64,000 nt of DNA, taken from a candidate division FCPU426 bacterium. GTDB lineage: Bacteria; Oederibacteriota; Muellerivitia; Muellerivitales; Muellerivitaceae. The stretch's first letter is position 1. Every line of letters begins with the position of its first letter. A model generated the notes under the pieces. It searched no databases. It was not told where the DNA came from and was given only the letters and a program-made list of their open reading frames with translations. Shown piece after piece: positions 4,674 through 52,178 of the stretch. The stretch covers positions 320,001-384,000 of the forward strand of contig CAVRAL010000001.1 of assembly GCA_963719085.1 (NCBI GenBank), read 5' to 3'. A program made the translations under genes and the position numbers.

Positions 4674-5570
4674 ATGAAATTGTCCCTCAGGGTTCTTTGC
4701 CTATTAGTACTGACGACGGTCACGGGCTTTTGCCAGGCTACGCCGACAGTCCCAACCACGGATCATTTCTTCACGGCCAGCGATGGCGTCACGCTTCATT
4801 ATCTGGAAGCGGGACAGGGGCCGACGCTGGTCTTTATCCCGGGTTGGACTATGCCGGCCGATATTTGGGCCGCGCAGACCGCCTTTTTTTCCACCCGCTA
4901 TCAGGTGGTGGTGCTGGACCCCCGCTGCCAGGGAAAATCCCAGATCATCACCCAAGGGCTTACCGTTTTGAGAAGGGCGCGGGATATTCAAGAGCTTTTA
5001 ACCCAACTGAAGGCCTCCAAACCGGTTTTGATCGGCTGGTCCATGGGAGGGAGCGAAGCGCTGGCTTATTTGGGCCAGTATGGCTGCGCCGGGCTCACGG
5101 GAGTTGTTTTGGTCGACGCGCCCCCGGGGTCGGACCCGACGAAGGTCCAGCAATTGAAAAGGCGGGAGCTGATTCAACGGCTTCAAGACGACCGCGGCAA
5201 AGAAACGAATTCTTTCGTGCGCTGGATGTTTCATAAGCCCCAATCGGAGAACTATTTAACGGGCCTCATGATGGAAGCCTTAAAAACCCCCACGCCCGAG
5301 GCGGTGGCCTTGCTCCAAGACCTTTATACGGTTTCAAATTGGCGTCCGGATTATTCCAAGATCGACCTTCCGGTGCTGGGTTTCGCTTCTGAAAGTTATG
5401 CCGCCGAGGAACAGTGGCTTCAAACCAAAATAAAAGGGATGAAAGTGGAGATGGAGCCCGGTGCCGGCCACGCGCTTTTCGTGGATGAAGCCGGTCATTT
5501 CAACAAGCAAACCCAAAAATTCCTGAATCATATCGGCTATCCGGGAAACCCGAAGGGCTCCAAGTCATGA
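4674..5570 (+). CDS. secreted alpha/beta hydrolase (non-heme haloperoxidase/esterase-like)
   Basis: signal peptide, GWSMGG nucleophile elbow, AGHALF catalytic His. Confidence 0.85.
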   Translation: MKLSLRVLCLLVLTTVTGFCQATPTVPTTDHFFTASDGVTLHYLEAGQGPTLVFIPGWTMPADIWAAQTAFFSTRYQVVVLDPRCQGKSQIITQGLTVLRRARDIQELLTQLKASKPVLIGWSMGGSEALAYLGQYGCAGLTGVVLVDAPPGSDPTKVQQLKRRELIQRLQDDRGKETNSFVRWMFHKPQSENYLTGLMMEALKTPTPEAVALLQDLYTVSNWRPDYSKIDLPVLGFASESYAAEEQWLQTKIKGMKVEMEPGAGHALFVDEAGHFNKQTQKFLNHIGYPGNPKGSKS

Positions 5571-8008
5571 ACTTATTCAAATCCCCGCTTTGGCCTTTGT
5601 TCCTGGTTTCAGCAGCCTCGGTCGGGTTCGAGGTCGAGCTGACGCGCTATTTCGCCATCGCCAGTTGGTCCGAGTATGGCTATTGGGTCATCTCCATCGT
5701 GATGGTGGGTTTCGCGGCGGGTGGGGTTTTGTTGAGCCTGTTGAAAGATTTTTTTGAGGAGTGGGCTCCGCGATTTTTATTTTGGATTCCGATTTTACTC
5801 ATGGCGGCGGGGGCCCTGGGTTTTTACGCGGCCACGCTGGTTCCGTTCAACCCCTTGGGATTCCAAAATCCGGATTTATGGTTCGATCAGTTGGTGAATG
5901 TCTGGAAATACTACGCGGTGCTTTTTCCGTTTTTCTTTTTGACTGGAATCTACATCGGCCTTTCGTTCCTTCGTTTTGCCGACCGTATCCCCTCGGTTTA
6001 CGCGGCGGACCTGATGGGCGCGGGGGCGGGTTCGCTCCTTCTGATGGGTCTGCTTTACCTGATTCACCCTTTCCATCTTTTAACGGCTTTGATTCCATTG
6101 CTATTTTTTGCTTCGTTACTGGGCCTCAAGAATCTTCCGGCTCGAAAAGCTCTTTGGGCTTTGGTGATCGTGGTTGTTTTTCTATTCAGCGAAGCGGCCT
6201 CGGTCTTTCTGAATCAGGCCGATTACTGCGAATACAAAGCCGTTTATCCGCCCCTGCATGTGGCGGGGAACAAGATCGTGGGCCAAATTCTGTCGCCCCG
6301 GGGCCAGTATCTGGCGCTGGATAATTTTACCGAGCGCGTGGATGTGGACCTTTCCAACAACTACAGTCTGCTCAAGGTGAATGGACCGCCACTGGCCTTT
6401 GGCATTTATCTGGATGGCAACCGGATTACCGAACTTCCAAAGTCACTTCCCGTGGACCTGTCTTATTCCAAGGCTTCGCTGGATGTGCTTCCTTATTATT
6501 TGCGGCAGGGGTCGCGCTGTTTATTGGTGGGAACCCGGGGCGGCTTCAAGATTCGCGAGGTTTTGACCCATGAGGCCCGTCAGGTCGACGCTTTGGAACC
6601 GGACCCGAACCTATATGCCTTTGTGACGCGGGAACACCTGGAACTGGAAGAGGGGCCAAAATCGCATGTTCAGCTTTTCGCTGAAACGCCCTCGGGATTC
6701 CTTCGAAACCACGCGGGGCCTTACGACATCATCGACCTCTCGGCCGAGTTTTTAAACCAAGGGGACGCCAACAAATTCGCGTTCACCCAGGAGACCCTGC
6801 GCCAATATTTTAACGCGCTGTCGCCCGGGGGAATCATCTCTATCCCGTCCTCTATTCGGGAATTCACCGTTTATGCCCTGAAGGAAGAAGAAAGCGCGCT
6901 TGTGCTTCTTCATTCAGAGGGTGTGGCTGATCCCGAAAAGCATTTGATCCTGTACCGCTCGGCCTGGAGCACCCAGCTTTTGATCTTTAAAAGCGAGGTT
7001 CGGCCGGCGGACCTGGTGATGCTTAAAAAATTCTGCTCCCGCCGTTCCTTTGACACGTCTTATTTCCCCGGGATTGAGCCGAAAAAGCTGGAAATCTGGA
7101 ATGACCTTCCACCCATCAGTTTTGATCAGAACGCGGCTTATGACCGCTCGGACAAGGCGGCGGATTCTTTAATGGATGACAGCTTGAAGCTTTTGTCCAA
7201 GGACCATGACGCCTTCGTGAAGGGTTATTTCTTCAACTTAACGCCGTCCACACAAGATCGGCCCTTCTTTTATTCCATCCTGCGGCTCTCGAACCTCGGG
7301 CAGATTCTTTCCAACATTACGCTGATTCCCCGGGAAGAAATCGGTTATCTCATTAATCTCGCTGTGTTGGCCCAGTCGATTCTATTGGCCTTGGTAGTTT
7401 TGATTTTGCCTTTGATTTTTAAAAGACAAACCCATTTTCACGGCATGACCAGCGTGGCCTTTTACTTCGCCGGATTGGGTTTGGGTTTTTTATTCATTGA
7501 GATATTTTTAATTGAAAAGGCTTCTTACTTTTTAGGCGACCGGGCGATGGCCTTTACCCTGGTGCTTTGCGGAATGCTTTTCTTTTCCGGGCTCGGCAGT
7601 TGGGCGGCGGGCCGCCTGTTTTGGATTGAAAGGGGACTGGCCTTGGCCCTGGGCGGCGTGGGGATTTGGCTCATCCTCTGTTTCTTCGGACTCAACGGCT
7701 TTTTAAGCGCTTTTCTTTCCAGCCCTGTGCTTTTAAAATGCGCTCTTTTACTGGTGGTCTTGGCGCCGGTTTCTTTCGCGCTCGGCATGCCATTCTCGCT
7801 GGGCTTAAGCCGATTAAAATCGGAAGGCGGAATGGTGCCTTGGGCCTGGGCTTTGAACGGGGCCTTTTCGGTGGTGGCCACGCCCTTAGCGAATCTTTTG
7901 GCCAACAGCACGGGCTATAGCCTTTTACTTTGGCTCAGCTTTGGCCTTTATTTGATCGTGTATTTGTTTTTCTCAAAACTAGGAACTTCCCGGGGAGCGA
8001 TGAAATGA
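5567..8008 (+). CDS. polytopic membrane protein with central spermidine-synthase-like SAM-binding domain
   Basis: many TM helices both sides; YAADLMGAGAG, STQDRPFF, WAWALNGAFSV motifs. Confidence 0.8.
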   Translation: MNLFKSPLWPLFLVSAASVGFEVELTRYFAIASWSEYGYWVISIVMVGFAAGGVLLSLLKDFFEEWAPRFLFWIPILLMAAGALGFYAATLVPFNPLGFQNPDLWFDQLVNVWKYYAVLFPFFFLTGIYIGLSFLRFADRIPSVYAADLMGAGAGSLLLMGLLYLIHPFHLLTALIPLLFFASLLGLKNLPARKALWALVIVVVFLFSEAASVFLNQADYCEYKAVYPPLHVAGNKIVGQILSPRGQYLALDNFTERVDVDLSNNYSLLKVNGPPLAFGIYLDGNRITELPKSLPVDLSYSKASLDVLPYYLRQGSRCLLVGTRGGFKIREVLTHEARQVDALEPDPNLYAFVTREHLELEEGPKSHVQLFAETPSGFLRNHAGPYDIIDLSAEFLNQGDANKFAFTQETLRQYFNALSPGGIISIPSSIREFTVYALKEEESALVLLHSEGVADPEKHLILYRSAWSTQLLIFKSEVRPADLVMLKKFCSRRSFDTSYFPGIEPKKLEIWNDLPPISFDQNAAYDRSDKAADSLMDDSLKLLSKDHDAFVKGYFFNLTPSTQDRPFFYSILRLSNLGQILSNITLIPREEIGYLINLAVLAQSILLALVVLILPLIFKRQTHFHGMTSVAFYFAGLGLGFLFIEIFLIEKASYFLGDRAMAFTLVLCGMLFFSGLGSWAAGRLFWIERGLALALGGVGIWLILCFFGLNGFLSAFLSSPVLLKCALLLVVLAPVSFALGMPFSLGLSRLKSEGGMVPWAWALNGAFSVVATPLANLLANSTGYSLLLWLSFGLYLIVYLFFSKLGTSRGAMK

Positions 8009-9084
8009 TGGAGTTATTAAACCAAGGCAACGGCCAACACAATTTTCACCGCCAAGACGCCAAGCTCGCCAAGAAAATCAAGAAACAATCGAGTTTTGAA
8101 AAACATTCATTTTTTAGCCTTACTTGGCGCACTTGGCGGCCACTCTTCCATAAAACAGTTAATGAGGGTGGCGCTGTCCCGCTTGTTTGGCCCAAGAGTG
8201 GGCCAGCGGGACGTCTTGGCGGTGAAAGGGTATTCAGTGTTTTGGCTTTGTTTGTTTGTCTTATGACAGTACCTTTGGCGGCCGTGGCGCAAACGCCCGT
8301 GCCGACCCCTTCGGCCAATACCTGGGACTATGCCGCTTTCCAAGCCGCCTTTAAGGCCAGCGGCCGCACGACGACCTTAACCCAGGAAAAGTTTGACGCG
8401 GTTCAGGTTCAAAAGAAGAAAGCCTATGACTATTTGAAGACCTATCTGGATGGCAAGTTCGGTAAGGCCAATCCCGCGGTCTTGGCCGGTTTCCAAGCTC
8501 TGCCGCGCGAGTATTACCACTACAACTACCAGAAGGGCAAAGATTTCTGCTCTTTGGCCTATGACATTCCCGGCAAGCCCTGGGCCATCGGTTATGGCTC
8601 CGCCTTGAGCGATTACCCCGGCCAGGCCTATATGATTCAGTTGGCCAGGCCGAAGCCCACGGATGTGGCTTTAGAAATTGGGACGGGAAGCGGTTACAAC
8701 ATTTCACTGCTCTCAAAAACAGTGAAGGAAGCCTACTCAATTGAGATCATCCAGCCTTTGGGTGAGGCGGTCTCCAACATTTTCGCGCCGCTTCATTTGA
8801 CCAACATCCATACCCGGGTCGGGGACGGCTTTTTCGGTTGGCCGGAGGTGAAGGGCGGGTTCAATTTGATCGTGGTTACCTGCGCCGCCCAATATGTGCC
8901 GCCCCAGCTTTTAGAACAGCTCAAGCCCAACGGCCGCATGATCATCCCCATCGGCCAGCCCTTCCGCGGCCATCAGGTGCTTTATGTCTATATGAAGGAC
9001 GCCGACGGCAAGGTTCATTCGAAGAAGGATATGGGCGTGTTCTTTATCCCGATGACGGGGCAGATGCAGAAGGGGAAGACGTAG
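8005..9084 (+). CDS. pcm: protein-L-isoaspartate O-methyltransferase-like protein with signal-peptide-like segment; start uncertain
   Basis: LEIGTGSGYN, GDGFFGWPE, QLKPNGRMIIPIG; ATG at 8005 overlaps upstream TGA; frame stays open across a palindromic element. Confidence 0.8.
   Translation: MMELLNQGNGQHNFHRQDAKLAKKIKKQSSFEKHSFFSLTWRTWRPLFHKTVNEGGAVPLVWPKSGPAGRLGGERVFSVLALFVCLMTVPLAAVAQTPVPTPSANTWDYAAFQAAFKASGRTTTLTQEKFDAVQVQKKKAYDYLKTYLDGKFGKANPAVLAGFQALPREYYHYNYQKGKDFCSLAYDIPGKPWAIGYGSALSDYPGQAYMIQLARPKPTDVALEIGTGSGYNISLLSKTVKEAYSIEIIQPLGEAVSNIFAPLHLTNIHTRVGDGFFGWPEVKGGFNLIVVTCAAQYVPPQLLEQLKPNGRMIIPIGQPFRGHQVLYVYMKDADGKVHSKKDMGVFFIPMTGQMQKGKT
8044..8227. repeat. palindrome family A, right arm interrupted by two-hairpin insert
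   Basis: TTTCACCGCCAAGACGCCAAGCTCGCCAAG ... CTTGGCGCACTTGGC[insert]GTCTTGGCGGTGAAA. Confidence 0.9.
8138..8212 (-). mobile_element. two-hairpin CGGGACA mini-element, copy 1 (subtype I)
   Basis: reverse complement closely matches 45896..45969 and sits at the same position in the host arm. Confidence 0.85.
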
Positions 9085-15393: not shown

Positions 15394-15567
15394 TTGAGCA
15401 ATGATGCCCCGGGACCCCATTGAAGGAGTCAAGGAGGCCCGGGACAATACCGCTCTCTCTTGACTCCTTTATGGAAGAGCGGCGCGGACGCAGATAAACG
15501 CCGATTTATGATAAACATGGGATTAGGCAGCTTTTTATCGGCGTTCATCCGCATTTATCATTGTTAA
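15394..15567. repeat. palindrome family B, left arm interrupted
   Basis: GCAATGAT[insert]GGACGCAGATAAACGCCGAT ... ATCGGCGTTCATCCGCATTTATCATTGT. Confidence 0.85.
15406..15485 (+). mobile_element. two-hairpin CGGGACA mini-element, copy 2 (subtype II)
   Basis: GCCCCGGG...CCCGGGACAAT-CCGCTCT...AGAGCGGCGC. Confidence 0.85.
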
Positions 15568-28862: not shown

Positions 28863-28889
28863 GAACTTCTAACAAAAACCTAATTCACC

Positions 28890-28964
28890 GCCCCGCCCGG
28901 CCTAGTTAGGCCGAACCAGGCGGGACATACCACCCTCAATATCATTTTATATATGGATGGTGGT
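28890..28964 (+). mobile_element. two-hairpin CGGGACA mini-element, copy 3 (subtype I)
   Basis: GCCCCGCC-GGCCTA/TAGGCC-GGCGGGACAT-ACCACC...GGTGGT. Confidence 0.8.
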
Positions 28965-28974
28965 GCCAAGACGC

Positions 28975-29048
28975 TCCCGGCGGCCGTAGTTCAGGCCAAT
29001 CGGCCGGGACATATCGCCTTCTTAATTATTTTTGTCAGGAGGGCGATG
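28975..29048 (+). mobile_element. two-hairpin CGGGACA mini-element, copy 4 (subtype I)
   Basis: TCCCGGC-GGCC...GGCC-GCCGGGACAT-ATCGCC...GGCGAT; boundaries +/-2 nt. Confidence 0.8.
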
Positions 29049-29072
29049 CAAGCTCGCCAAGAAAAAAGGCCG

Positions 29073-29150
29073 CATCCGTGTTCATCTGCGCGCGCGCCGC
29101 TCCACCCTCTATGAGCAAAGGGAGAGCGGCGTTGTCCCGGGCATCTGTGG
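29073..29150. repeat. family B right arm, interrupted
   Basis: CATCCGTGTTCATCTGCGCGC[insert]ATCTGTGG. Confidence 0.7.
29094..29142 (-). mobile_element. two-hairpin mini-element, copy 5 (subtype II, first hairpin deleted)
   Basis: minus strand GCCCGGGACAACGCCGCTC...GAGCGGCGC inserted after CAGAT. Confidence 0.7.
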
Positions 29151-29211
29151 CAAAACCTGTTTTGGCGTTGTTTTTTTCCTCTTTAAAGACTTACCCAATT
29201 TGCGCTTTCGG

Positions 29212-30994: not shown

Positions 30995-31148
30995 ACAATG
31001 ATGTCCCGGGTCCCCCTATTGAAGTCAAAGCCGCCCGGGACAATGTCGCTCACCCCTAAACTGTTTTATGCAGAAGCGGCGCGGACGCTGATCAACGCTG
31101 ATAAAAAAACAAGACATTTGGTTCAAACCAATCCGCGTTCATCAATGC
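30995..31148. repeat. palindrome family B, left arm interrupted
   Basis: ACAATGAT[insert]GGACGCTGATCAACGCTGAT ... ATCCGCGTTCATCAATGC. Confidence 0.8.
31003..31082 (+). mobile_element. two-hairpin CGGGACA mini-element, copy 6 (subtype II)
   Basis: GTCCCGGG...CCCGGGACAATGTCGCT...AGCGGCGC. Confidence 0.85.
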
Positions 31149-45777: not shown

Positions 45778-45818
45778 GTTCGGGAAGCGAAGTCCGGAAA
45801 AGCAGGATTTTAAAACCG

Positions 45819-45860
45819 AAAACTCCCTTTTTCCCGGTTGGGAAGAGGGAGTTTTTTTTT
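45819..45860 (+). terminator. intrinsic terminator
   Basis: AAAACTCCCTTTTTCCC/GGGAAGAGGGAGTTTT hairpin plus T-run. Confidence 0.8.
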
Positions 45861-45880
45861 AATGTTTTTAATTGAAACAA

Positions 45881-46062
45881 TTTTACCGCCAAGGCGCCCC
45901 GCTGGCCCATTGGGGGCCAAACGAGCGGGACAGTGCCGCCCCCATTAATTTTTTTATGGAGGGGCGGCCGCCAAGTTCGCCAAGAACAGCGAAAGACGAA
46001 GGCTTTTAAAACATATTTGGATTTAGCCTTTCTTGGCGAACTTGGCGCCTTGGCGGTGAAAA
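45881..46062. repeat. palindrome family A, left arm interrupted
   Basis: removing the insert gives ACCGCCAAGGCGCCAAGTTCGCCAAGAA, the exact reverse complement of the right arm. Confidence 0.92.
45896..45969 (+). mobile_element. two-hairpin CGGGACA mini-element, copy 7 (subtype I)
   Basis: GCCCCGCT-GGCCC...GGGCC-AGCGGGACAGT-GCCGCCCC...GGGGCGGCC. Confidence 0.88.
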
Positions 46063-46101
46063 AGTTTTTTTTGAGATTTAAATCTATCAGGAGTTTTTGA
46101 A

Positions 46102-47091
46102 TTGACCCAAGCCGTCAGCCACCGCATCACTTTGGATGACCATCAGGAATGCGTCCGATTATTCGGGGAAAAAGACCATACCCTGAAATTGATCCGTGAT
46201 TCTTTCGCCGTGACCCTCATCGCCCGCGGGAACGAACTGTTGTTGTCCGGGGAACCGCTGGAAGTTTCCCACGCGTCCCAGGTGATTGAGCGCTTGCGGC
46301 TTCATTTAAAGAAAAACACCGAAGGCTACCTTTCGGGGGCGAAAGTCAGCCAGACCATCGCCGAAGCCAAGGGCCAAACGCTGGAAGAACCGGAGCCGGC
46401 GGCGGCGCGGGAAACCATCCTCATCTCGTCTCGTAAAAAGCCCATCGCGGCGCGCACGGACAACCAGCAAAAATACGTGGACGCCATCCGAAGCCACGAC
46501 ATCGTCTTTGGCGTGGGGCCGGCGGGAACGGGAAAAACTTATTTGGCGATGGCCATGGCGGTCTCCGCCCTGCGGGACGGGCTGGTGGAGCGCTTGATCC
46601 TGACCCGCCCGGCGGTGGAGGCGGGGGAAAAGCTCGGATTTTTGCCGGGGGACCTGCAGGATAAGGTGGATCCCTATTTGCGTCCGCTTTATGACGCGCT
46701 TTATGACATGGTGGATTACGAAAAGTTACAGCGCCTGTTCCAACAGCGCGTGGTGGAAGTGGCGCCGCTGGCCTATATGCGGGGACGGACCCTGTCGAAC
46801 GCTTTTATTATTTTGGACGAGGCCCAGAACACCAGCCCCGAGCAAATGAAGATGTTTTTAACCCGCACCGGCGCCGGATCCAAAGTGGTGGTGACCGGCG
46901 ACGTGACCCAGGTGGACCTGCCCAGCGGCAAGGCCTCGGGCCTGGTCCACGCGCAGGAAGTCTTGAAGGGGCTGCCGGGCATCGGCGTGATTCATTTCCA
47001 ACCGCAGGACGTGGTGCGGCACAAATTGGTCCAGACCATTGTGCGGGCTTACGACAGCCATGAAGCCGCCAAAGCCGAAAAACCGGTTTGA
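46102..47091 (+). CDS. phoH: PhoH family ATPase (YbeZ-like)
   Basis: GPAGTGKT, RPAVEAGEKLGFLPGD, YMRGRT, DEAQN. Confidence 0.95.
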   Translation: MTQAVSHRITLDDHQECVRLFGEKDHTLKLIRDSFAVTLIARGNELLLSGEPLEVSHASQVIERLRLHLKKNTEGYLSGAKVSQTIAEAKGQTLEEPEPAAARETILISSRKKPIAARTDNQQKYVDAIRSHDIVFGVGPAGTGKTYLAMAMAVSALRDGLVERLILTRPAVEAGEKLGFLPGDLQDKVDPYLRPLYDALYDMVDYEKLQRLFQQRVVEVAPLAYMRGRTLSNAFIILDEAQNTSPEQMKMFLTRTGAGSKVVVTGDVTQVDLPSGKASGLVHAQEVLKGLPGIGVIHFQPQDVVRHKLVQTIVRAYDSHEAAKAEKPV

Positions 47092-52004: not shown

Positions 52005-52178
52005 ATTAGCAATGATATCCCGGGATTCCATATTGTGGTTAAAGATACCCGGGACAATGTCGCTCTCCCCTAACTTCTAAATGAGGAAGCGACGCGAACG
52101 CAGATGGAAGCCGATAGAAGATTTGTGAACCATTTGAATTTGTTTAATCCGCGTGTATCTGCGTTCATCATTGCTAAT
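52005..52178. repeat. palindrome family B, left arm interrupted
   Basis: ATTAGCAATGAT[insert]GAACGCAGAT ... ATCTGCGTTCATCATTGCTAAT. Confidence 0.92.
52017..52095 (+). mobile_element. two-hairpin CGGGACA mini-element, copy 8 (subtype II)
   Basis: ATCCCGGG...CCCGGGACAATGTCGCT...AGCGACGC. Confidence 0.88.

Follow-up and report, generated by a model that had tools for sequence, protein, structure and literature searches.

A non-coding, self-folding piece of DNA of 74-75 nt that carries two hairpins is located within the arms of a palindromic intergenic repeat, and we lean towards reading this cassette as a non-autonomous, site-specific DNA insert in the octamer-unit arms of a REP/REPIN-like repeat, for which both the slot and the orientation are fixed. 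The two focal copies, in the host elements E1 and E2 (Table 1), belong to a window of 64,000 nt (the whole stretch of DNA that was analysed, to which all positions given without a contig label refer) from the genome of an uncultured soil bacterium (3.04 Mb, 5 contigs, 99.08% complete). Both were recognized with an E value of ~1e-13 by a covariance model built on 18 copies of the cassette. Within the window, the pattern of the host arms gave 5 matches versus 0 in 100 shuffles, and the cassette core gave 1 match versus 0 in the shuffled sequences.

Table 1. Coordinates, strands and model scores of the host elements and cassettes in the window
Feature	Position	Strand	Score
E1 left arm, outer part up to the cassette (TTTT-ACCGCCAAG-GC)	45881..45895	+	
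Two-hairpin cassette, subfamily a, 74 nt	45896..45969	+	79.5 bits, E 1.2e-13 (covariance model)
E1 left arm, inner part, units GCCAAG-TTC-GCCAAG-AA	45970..45986	+	
E1 central spacer (loop)	45987..46029	.	
E1 right arm	46030..46062	-	
E2 left arm, intact	8044..8075	+	
E2 central spacer, co-linear with the E1 spacer	8076..8122	.	
E2 right arm, inner part	8123..8137	-	
Two-hairpin cassette, subfamily a, 75 nt, in opposite orientation to that at 45896	8138..8212	-	75.5 bits
E2 right arm, outer part	8213..8227	-	
Cassette, subfamily d, unit 1 of a family-A left arm	28888..28964	+	83.4 bits
Cassette, subfamily c, unit 2 of the family-A left arm at 28880-29051	28975..29050	+	78.3 bits
B-type cassettes	15405-15487, 31002-31084, 52016-52097	+	
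B-type partial copy	29092-29173	-	

Position and orientation of the cassettes

E1 is a palindromic intergenic element (45881-46062) with a LysM-like ORF and its terminator-like hairpin on one side and phoH on the other, and its arms are made of three units of 8-9 nt (ACCGCCAAG, GC/AC-GCCAAG and TTC-GCCAAG). According to the original prediction, removal of the cassette would restore a perfect complement of the opposite arm, and a scripted cut of 45896-45969 indeed left a 28-nt left arm, with 28/28 of its positions matching the reverse complement of 46030-46057. A cassette-free paralogue of E1 is present in the same genome (C1:690248-690363). Its spacer is related to that of E1, for which no long match was found elsewhere in the genome, and the alignment of E1 with C1:690244-690367 contains a single clean gap of 74 nt at the position of the cassette, with flanks identical at 14/15 and 27/29 positions, including a rare AAGGC variant. 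E1 and this paralogue are thus a filled/empty pair inside one genome.

The second focal cassette (8138-8212) had been described as a related insert at the equivalent point of an opposite arm and in the opposite orientation, and this agrees with what was found: it is an inverted relative located in the right arm of E2, and the insertion point AAGRC^GCCAAG is common to both copies (read on its own strand, the E2 insert has ...CCAAGAC on its 5' side and GCCAAG... on its 3' side). The pairwise alignment of 45881-45985 with the reverse complement of 8123-8227 was identical in 89/108 columns, flanks included. After excision of the cassettes, the two hosts aligned with a score of 63.5 when kept co-linear (loops 11.0, shuffle p 0.0005) and with a score of 49.5 when one of them was inverted (loops 4.5, shuffle p 0.008); given the better co-linear alignment, the two cassettes are in opposite arms of like-oriented hosts, with the reservation that the spacers themselves are partly palindromic. 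E2 (8044-8227) is downstream of the ORF at 5567-8008, but inside a mechanically called ORF at 7930-9084. This mechanical ORF (+, 384 aa) runs through E2 and its cassette; the isoaspartyl-methyltransferase-like gene probably has its true start downstream of 8230.

Throughout the genome, 67 related copies were retrieved with iterated nhmmer. The covariance model groups its 18 copies and two truncated ones, referred to as A-type, and recovers a larger B-type group weakly (see below). The 20 A-type cassettes are placed in canonical GCCAAG arms in 17 cases and in variant octamer arms in the other 3. Four subfamilies were distinguished, with one slot each, at or no more than 2 nt from the 5' edge of the CCAAG core: subfamily a at AAGRC^GCCAAG in unit 2 (6 copies, two of them truncated), subfamily b at CACCGC^CAAG in unit 1 (4 copies), subfamily c at GACGC^CAAG in unit 2 (4 copies), and subfamily d at CACCG^CCAAG in unit 1 (3 copies). 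The claim that insertion is specific for site and orientation relative to the arm, initially made from the two focal copies, was upheld by the genome-wide statistics. All 17 cassettes in GCCAAG arms and all 3 in variant arms follow the direction of the arm (co-oriented, i.e., with the outer end CACCGC... on the 5' side), and a fixed slot holds beyond the two focal copies, with the refinement that the slot is specific to each subfamily. The 17 canonical cassettes are distributed over 12 left and 5 right arms; in the element at C4:218775-219045 both arms bear a cassette, each oriented by its own arm, and the family-A left arm at 28880-29051 carries two cassettes in successive octamer units.

Arms with units 1 and 2 uninterrupted are frequent in this genome (73 intact arms versus 0 for a reversed control pattern). 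In a BLAST search with the loops, the spacers of 10/10 A-type cassette-bearing hosts examined had no long match elsewhere in the genome, which indicates that host and cassette were not copied together as one unit. Divergence within subfamilies amounts to ~10-20% (estimated by eye on the alignment), and thus gives no sign of current activity. Regarding the truncated subfamily-a cassettes (C4:848391-848463 and C1:1343676-1343723), a GGCGG-like motif of hairpin 2 is joined in both to the end of the host right arm, which is similar to it, and the truncating deletions removed the remainder of the host. The sequence of hairpin 2 is like that of the host terminus (ACCGCC/GGCGGT).

Structure and distribution of the cassette family

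In hairpin 1 of the cassette at 45896, CCCGCT/AGCGGG forms the outer stem and GGCCC/GGGCC the inner one, and AAACG is a 5-nt bulge on the 3' side; hairpin 1 is followed by the linker ACAGT and by hairpin 2 (GCCGCCCC.../...GGGGCGGC) with an A+T-rich loop. The alignment of 18 copies displays the same design, with a two-tiered hairpin 1 (an inner stem in addition to the outer stem (Y)CCCGN/NCGGG(A), with a 5-nt bulge on the 3' side that starts with AA), a linker that starts with an invariant GGGAC, and an A+T-rich loop in hairpin 2. It contains 21 pairs in 3 helices, and 87.8% of the cells are paired, in comparison to 32-52% when the partners are slid. Changes on both sides occur in 12 pairs, and the covariation score was reached in 0/500 shuffles; compensatory changes have maintained all of the three helices. 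With equal numbers of G.T and A.C cells (22 each), there is no preference for one strand in folding. When DNA parameters are used, a four-way junction with an undisturbed host stem is predicted for both strands of E1 and E2, and the predicted energy for E1 is -61.0 kcal/mol in the filled state versus -44.6 kcal/mol after excision. A known RNA family was considered and rejected, as Rfam gave no match at gathering score over the whole window, only chance-level rows at E up to 10 for 45800-46120, and nothing for three further cassette loci.

Cassette-like units were also observed in front of an hldE-like gene, where two to three of them in tandem (C4:139013-139174, -) abut the ATG. The orthologue in G001, a genome of the same genus, has one unit (L215:1501-1584) with stems changed in a compensating way. 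At this gene, the 3' strand of cassette hairpin 2 (GGAGGGG) resembles a ribosome-binding site. A conserved riboswitch was considered as a candidate for this locus and rejected, since the unit is absent upstream of the orthologue at 26 other loci of the family.

The B-type cassettes are a second and larger group of two-hairpin cassettes, with ~40 copies genome-wide. Their host is a different palindrome family with GCNGAT units; in the copies that were read, they are found between CAATGATG and GAC-GCNGAT, at the outer end of an arm. More than 100 arms of the GCNGAT family are without a nearby co-oriented cassette, in a list that includes chance matches inside genes. In three B-type copies, possible kissing loops were noticed by eye.

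At E ≤ 1e-4, the model matched 20 sites in its own genome (19 A-type and 1 B-like, as read), 1-2 sites in 6/30 other genomes of the family, and none in 68 genomes that belong to different families of the phylum, in searches that scored 48 to 150 first-look candidates per genome. The host-arm 16-mer CCGCCAAGRCGCCAAG is identical in five genomes of four genera (the genome under study, G001, G010, G019 and G020), and its counts in the four other family genomes are 31 (G001), 21, 16 and 15. Genes in these genomes are ~70-78% identical and the spacers have no long mutual match; the host arms are either very strongly constrained or still being generated. G001 (82% complete, fragmented, 31 intact arms) contained no arm-borne cassette at E ≤ 1. 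At the loci corresponding to 45881 and 28880, the whole host element is absent from G001, which therefore provides no orthologous empty site at the level of the cassette, and no orthologous flanks were found for the 8044 locus.

A sister subfamily was recovered with 23 matches in 4/5 related genomes, 20 of which were read. All 20 are co-oriented with the units and located directly 5' of a hexamer core, preceded by a spacer whose last base is C, and their host hexamers are of seven types (GCCAAG, ACCAAG, ACAAAG, GCAGAG, GCGGAG, ACTGAG and ACAGG). The first base of the cassette, which is A or G, is the same as that of the next hexamer in 17/20 sister copies (21/24 with the four full subfamily-a copies of the original genome added), and it closes hairpin 1 (A-T or G-C) in 18/20, counts that overstate independence since near-duplicates are present among the 20 copies (three in G042).

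Public sequence collections were also screened. In the Logan contigs of runs X1-X3 (one study), the junctions were filled and without differences, and no excised joint was present, in contigs that cannot show rare variants; those of run X6 held nothing further at the cassette junctions. A metagenome scan with the neighbouring LysM-like protein returned relatives at 40-49% and one fragment of 37 residues, and no close strain. The scan with an 18-mer of the core gave chance matches, as both hairpins were present in none of the matches listed (at least 119 genome-contig and 6 viral-contig stretches).

Proposed insertion mechanism and alternative explanations

That the cassette was inserted, as an event, is suggested by the cassette-free paralogue of E1 together with the distribution across lineages. 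In the reading that we favour, it would have been inserted as DNA, with the slot set by the subfamily and the orientation set by the arm sequence. Since the arms are mutually reverse complementary, the same target is offered once per strand, and thus cassettes in left arms and inverted cassettes in right arms are the same event on opposite strands. After insertion, the cassette would branch off sideways as a fold of its own, so that the host hairpin becomes a four-way junction with an intact host stem.

A repeat is present at the junctions of some cassettes and absent from others. CGCC (4 bases) stands at both E1 junctions and CG (2 bases) at both E2 junctions, so that the cut point slides by 4 and 2 bases, respectively; the repeat is 1-5 nt long in 20 sister copies and is missing (0 nt) in subfamilies b and c, and one junction rule thus does not fit all. 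Owing to this short repeat, excision cannot separate a duplication-free insertion from a duplication of 2-4 nt or a shared core. In subfamily a and the sister copies, the short repeat C-R-(C-C) at both junctions tracks the target, which fits either a target duplication of 2-4 nt or a recombination core matched between cassette and target. Target choice might operate through these 2-4 bases (C-R-C-C), common to the cassette 5' end and the target, which could act as the core of a conservative recombination or arise as a short target duplication. Inverted ends are limited to 4-5 nt at most (CCCGC at the 5' end versus GCGG/GGCGG at the 3' end), and the hairpins are internal to each half.

Spread of the cassettes could be mediated by an enzyme acting in trans, and the searches of the genome returned no candidate for it. 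No match was obtained in the 99.08% complete genome for the Y1 HUH family (PF01797), for which the control search hit 6/14 genomes, or for the IS110 DEDD transposase (PF01548); RVT_1, the TnpB zinc ribbon and resolvase were absent as well, and no ORF in the genome had a second paralogue at 70% identity or more. The genome encodes five tyrosine recombinases, all of them below the NCBIfam cut-offs for XerC, XerD and integron integrase (the best score against TIGR02249 was 82 bits, with a cut-off of 265) and none linked to a cassette. Their genes are located at C1:1321795-1322907, C1:829966-831090, C4:254362-255582, C4:272485-273663 and from C4:497336 onward. As a candidate for an autonomous parent, the lone hairpin-1 copy at C4:839854 was examined and rejected, as it is followed by another palindrome and no gene. 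The genome has no insertion-sequence-like multi-copy gene, yet well over a hundred small palindromic repeats.

The cassettes are not biased with regard to the replication strand (37 leading versus 31 lagging among 68 copies; 6 and 7 for A-type) or to the sense of the neighbouring genes (16 sense versus 22 antisense), which argues against a single-strand mechanism like that of IS200/IS605 and against a role as sense RNA. Between gene pairs, 25 elements are in convergent and 3 in divergent arrangements. The GC skew of the genome is clean, with switches near C1:840 kb and C4:740 kb.

Several other explanations have to be weighed against insertion. A cassette that has landed once might spread from arm to arm by gene conversion or recombination through the near-identical flanks. 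Such homology-driven copying would automatically fix the slot and the orientation relative to the arm, in either arm, and it would profit from the near identity of the 73 intact arms; the use of one unit per subfamily (b 4/4, c 4/4, d 3/3 and a 6/6) although CGCCAAG is present in all three units, and searches that found neither a transposase nor a strand bias, are also in line with it. However, the homology on the outer side spans just 9-14 nt, and the E1 flank retains the rare AAGGC variant at 1-2 nt from the junction, where it is matched by its own partner arm. In addition, the sister slot rule holds in at least seven hexamer families with non-homologous flanks, with the first base tracking the target in 17/20 copies. 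We consider this route rather unlikely, but since no filled/empty polymorphism was seen and G001 provides no comparable empty site, it is a live rival. Composite duplication, by which host and cassette would have spread as a unit, the copy at 8138 being that unit inverted, has very little probability in our view: 10/10 A-type host spacers are unmatched, the nearest relative of E1 is cassette-free, and the hosts of the two focal copies align better co-linearly than inverted. These observations outweigh the facts that hosts are palindromic, so that an inverted composite would mimic a cassette in the other arm, and that long flanks are common to some B-type composites.

It is also conceivable, with a low probability, that the cassette was an original module of the repeat that most arms have lost by precise deletion, e.g., through slippage between the junction repeats. 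For the short and long forms of ERIC, deletion was reportedly proposed. Junction repeats of 2-5 nt in subfamily a and its relatives could serve such a loss, and the two truncated copies do derive from deletions, the end points of which are GGCGG-like motifs in the cassette and at the host end. Nevertheless, in subfamilies b and c a precise loss would lack a junction repeat as its driver, cassette-free arms are the rule in five genomes (73, 31, 21, 16 and 15 intact arms), and cassettes resembling the model are rare or absent outside their own genome; four subfamilies with four slots, the arm with a double cassette and the element with a cassette in both arms would also be a misfit for a single ancestral architecture. 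Finally, the cassette might be a functional structured motif under selection (a pair of regulatory hairpins, or a DNA or RNA element to which a protein binds) that the arms merely tolerate. The compensatory changes preserving all three helices speak for such a motif, as does a cassette-like copy that abuts the start codon of the hldE-like gene both in this genome and in G001. The orientation relative to neighbouring genes is, however, random (16 sense, 22 antisense), G.T and A.C cells are equal (22, 22), Rfam returned no match, the copy number is lineage-specific and the fixed slot would be left unexplained, and we therefore regard a function of this kind as improbable.

Going further than site-specific insertion, and in our opinion rather doubtful at this stage, is the idea that the cassettes represent a new class of miniature integrative DNA, i.e., a unit of ~70 nt recognized via its two hairpins, of which a C-R-C-C core of 2-4 nt recombines with REP-like octamers. 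The enzyme would then be a single-copy host recombinase or belong to a family not yet linked to mobility. If true, this would explain the fixed slot and orientation, the target-tracking purine that is paired in hairpin 1, the missing transposase, and the independent subfamilies in different genera.

Relation to known repeat systems

Elements in which one repeat resides in another are already known, and the case described here comes with a base-precise, testable target rule. Our literature search returned no paper on repeats in Omnitrophota or on a two-hairpin cassette, a result that is not proof of absence in print. The closest descriptions in form come from the parts of Di Nocera et al. 2013 (PMC3733652) used here, in which REP dimers are located inside longer palindromes in Anabaena variabilis, Thermomicrobium roseum and Halothiobacillus neapolitanus, T. 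roseum also contains hundreds of target palindromes that are empty, and CGTC-tagged REPs are without a dedicated transposase. In these parts, CGTC-REPs are characterized by a CGTC/TGTC/CCTC tag, a stem of 8-9 bp with A-T as first pairs, a loop of 4-5 nt and a CCA tail (PMC3733652). As far as these descriptions extend, the cassette has in common with nested REPs that a small GC-rich hairpin element resides in a larger palindrome, with many empty targets and no transposase found, but it differs by consisting of two dissimilar hairpins in a fixed pair, ~75 nt long and with conservation of bulge and linker, and by its location inside one arm, at a set base of the octamer, instead of the palindrome centre (PMC3733652). 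Compared with the CGTC REPs as given there, CGTC is at the junction in three subfamily-a copies alone, a CCA tail is missing, the stems start with C-G pairs, and hairpin 1 is two-tiered with a 5-nt bulge. The invariant GGGAC of the linker reads GTCCC on the other strand, which may be regarded as a lead.

The host, rather than the cassette, resembles the REPINs, which in the portion of Bertels and Rainey 2011 (PMC3116915) drawn on here have conserved arms and variable spacers and include REPINs inserted into REPINs. Within that portion, the likeness lies in two conserved inverted arms, a poorly conserved spacer, the hairpin and compensatory changes, whereas the REPIN-RAYT system is different in that our genome has no RAYT/Y1 gene, the arms have three units (8-9 nt) and the nested piece is not a REPIN (PMC3116915). 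With conserved inverted arms and spacers that have no long match elsewhere, the host has the form of a REPIN-type doublet. Miniature elements derived from IS200/IS605 have a hairpin near each end and no long terminal inverted repeats, and they insert in a site- and orientation-specific manner with little or no duplication. Parallels between such elements and REPINs are drawn in the part of PMC3116915 used here. The cassette shares with these miniatures the hairpin near each end and the oriented insertion at a short target, with what may be little or no duplication. Unlike them, its hairpins differ from each other and are within 0-2 nt of the ends, replication-strand bias is absent (37/31), and the genome has neither TnpA nor TnpB.

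ERIC/IRU are palindromic intergenic repeats in which, at set positions, an internal block of ~70 bp may be present (long forms) or missing. ERIC is a MITE of 127 bp (PMC3184786), and BIME is, in the part of PMC2817692 considered, a mosaic palindromic repeat built from modules. ERIC/IRU, BIME and BOX, which are found in unrelated lineages and were compared by description, are similar to our elements as palindromic intergenic repeats with an optional block of ~70 bp or a modular build, but the cassettes evolve separately, as a family that has subfamilies, slots and a structure of its own. Insertion specifically into repetitive palindromes, in a set orientation, is a property of IS1397/ISKpn1 and of members of IS110/IS1111. 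These REP-targeting insertion sequences are autonomous, measure 1-1.5 kb and carry a transposase. The cassette would likewise enter repetitive palindromes specifically and in a set orientation, but it is without coding capacity and the genome has no IS110-type gene. As for the MITEs and the integron attC/gene cassettes, the searches of the genome returned neither a parent element with a transposase nor an integron integrase.

The intergenic regions of many bacteria are full of small palindromic repeats, and for several of their classes, e.g., the CGTC-type REPs, we know of no mobilising enzyme. The cassettes described here are a workable case, with many empty targets, four subfamilies with base-precise slots, a structure backed by covariation and a junction base whose changes follow those of the target from genus to genus, and the hypothesis on target choice is concrete enough for plasmid assays. 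They are also of practical relevance: hairpins nested in this way give four-way junctions with energies of about -60 kcal/mol, at which assemblies from short reads break, and they are liable to be misread as riboswitches or as genes for structured RNAs. Nesting extends to three levels at C4:148139-148557, where the left arm of a family-A palindrome contains a subfamily-c cassette and the spacer of this palindrome contains a complete palindrome of the GCNGAT family, which bears its own B-type cassette.
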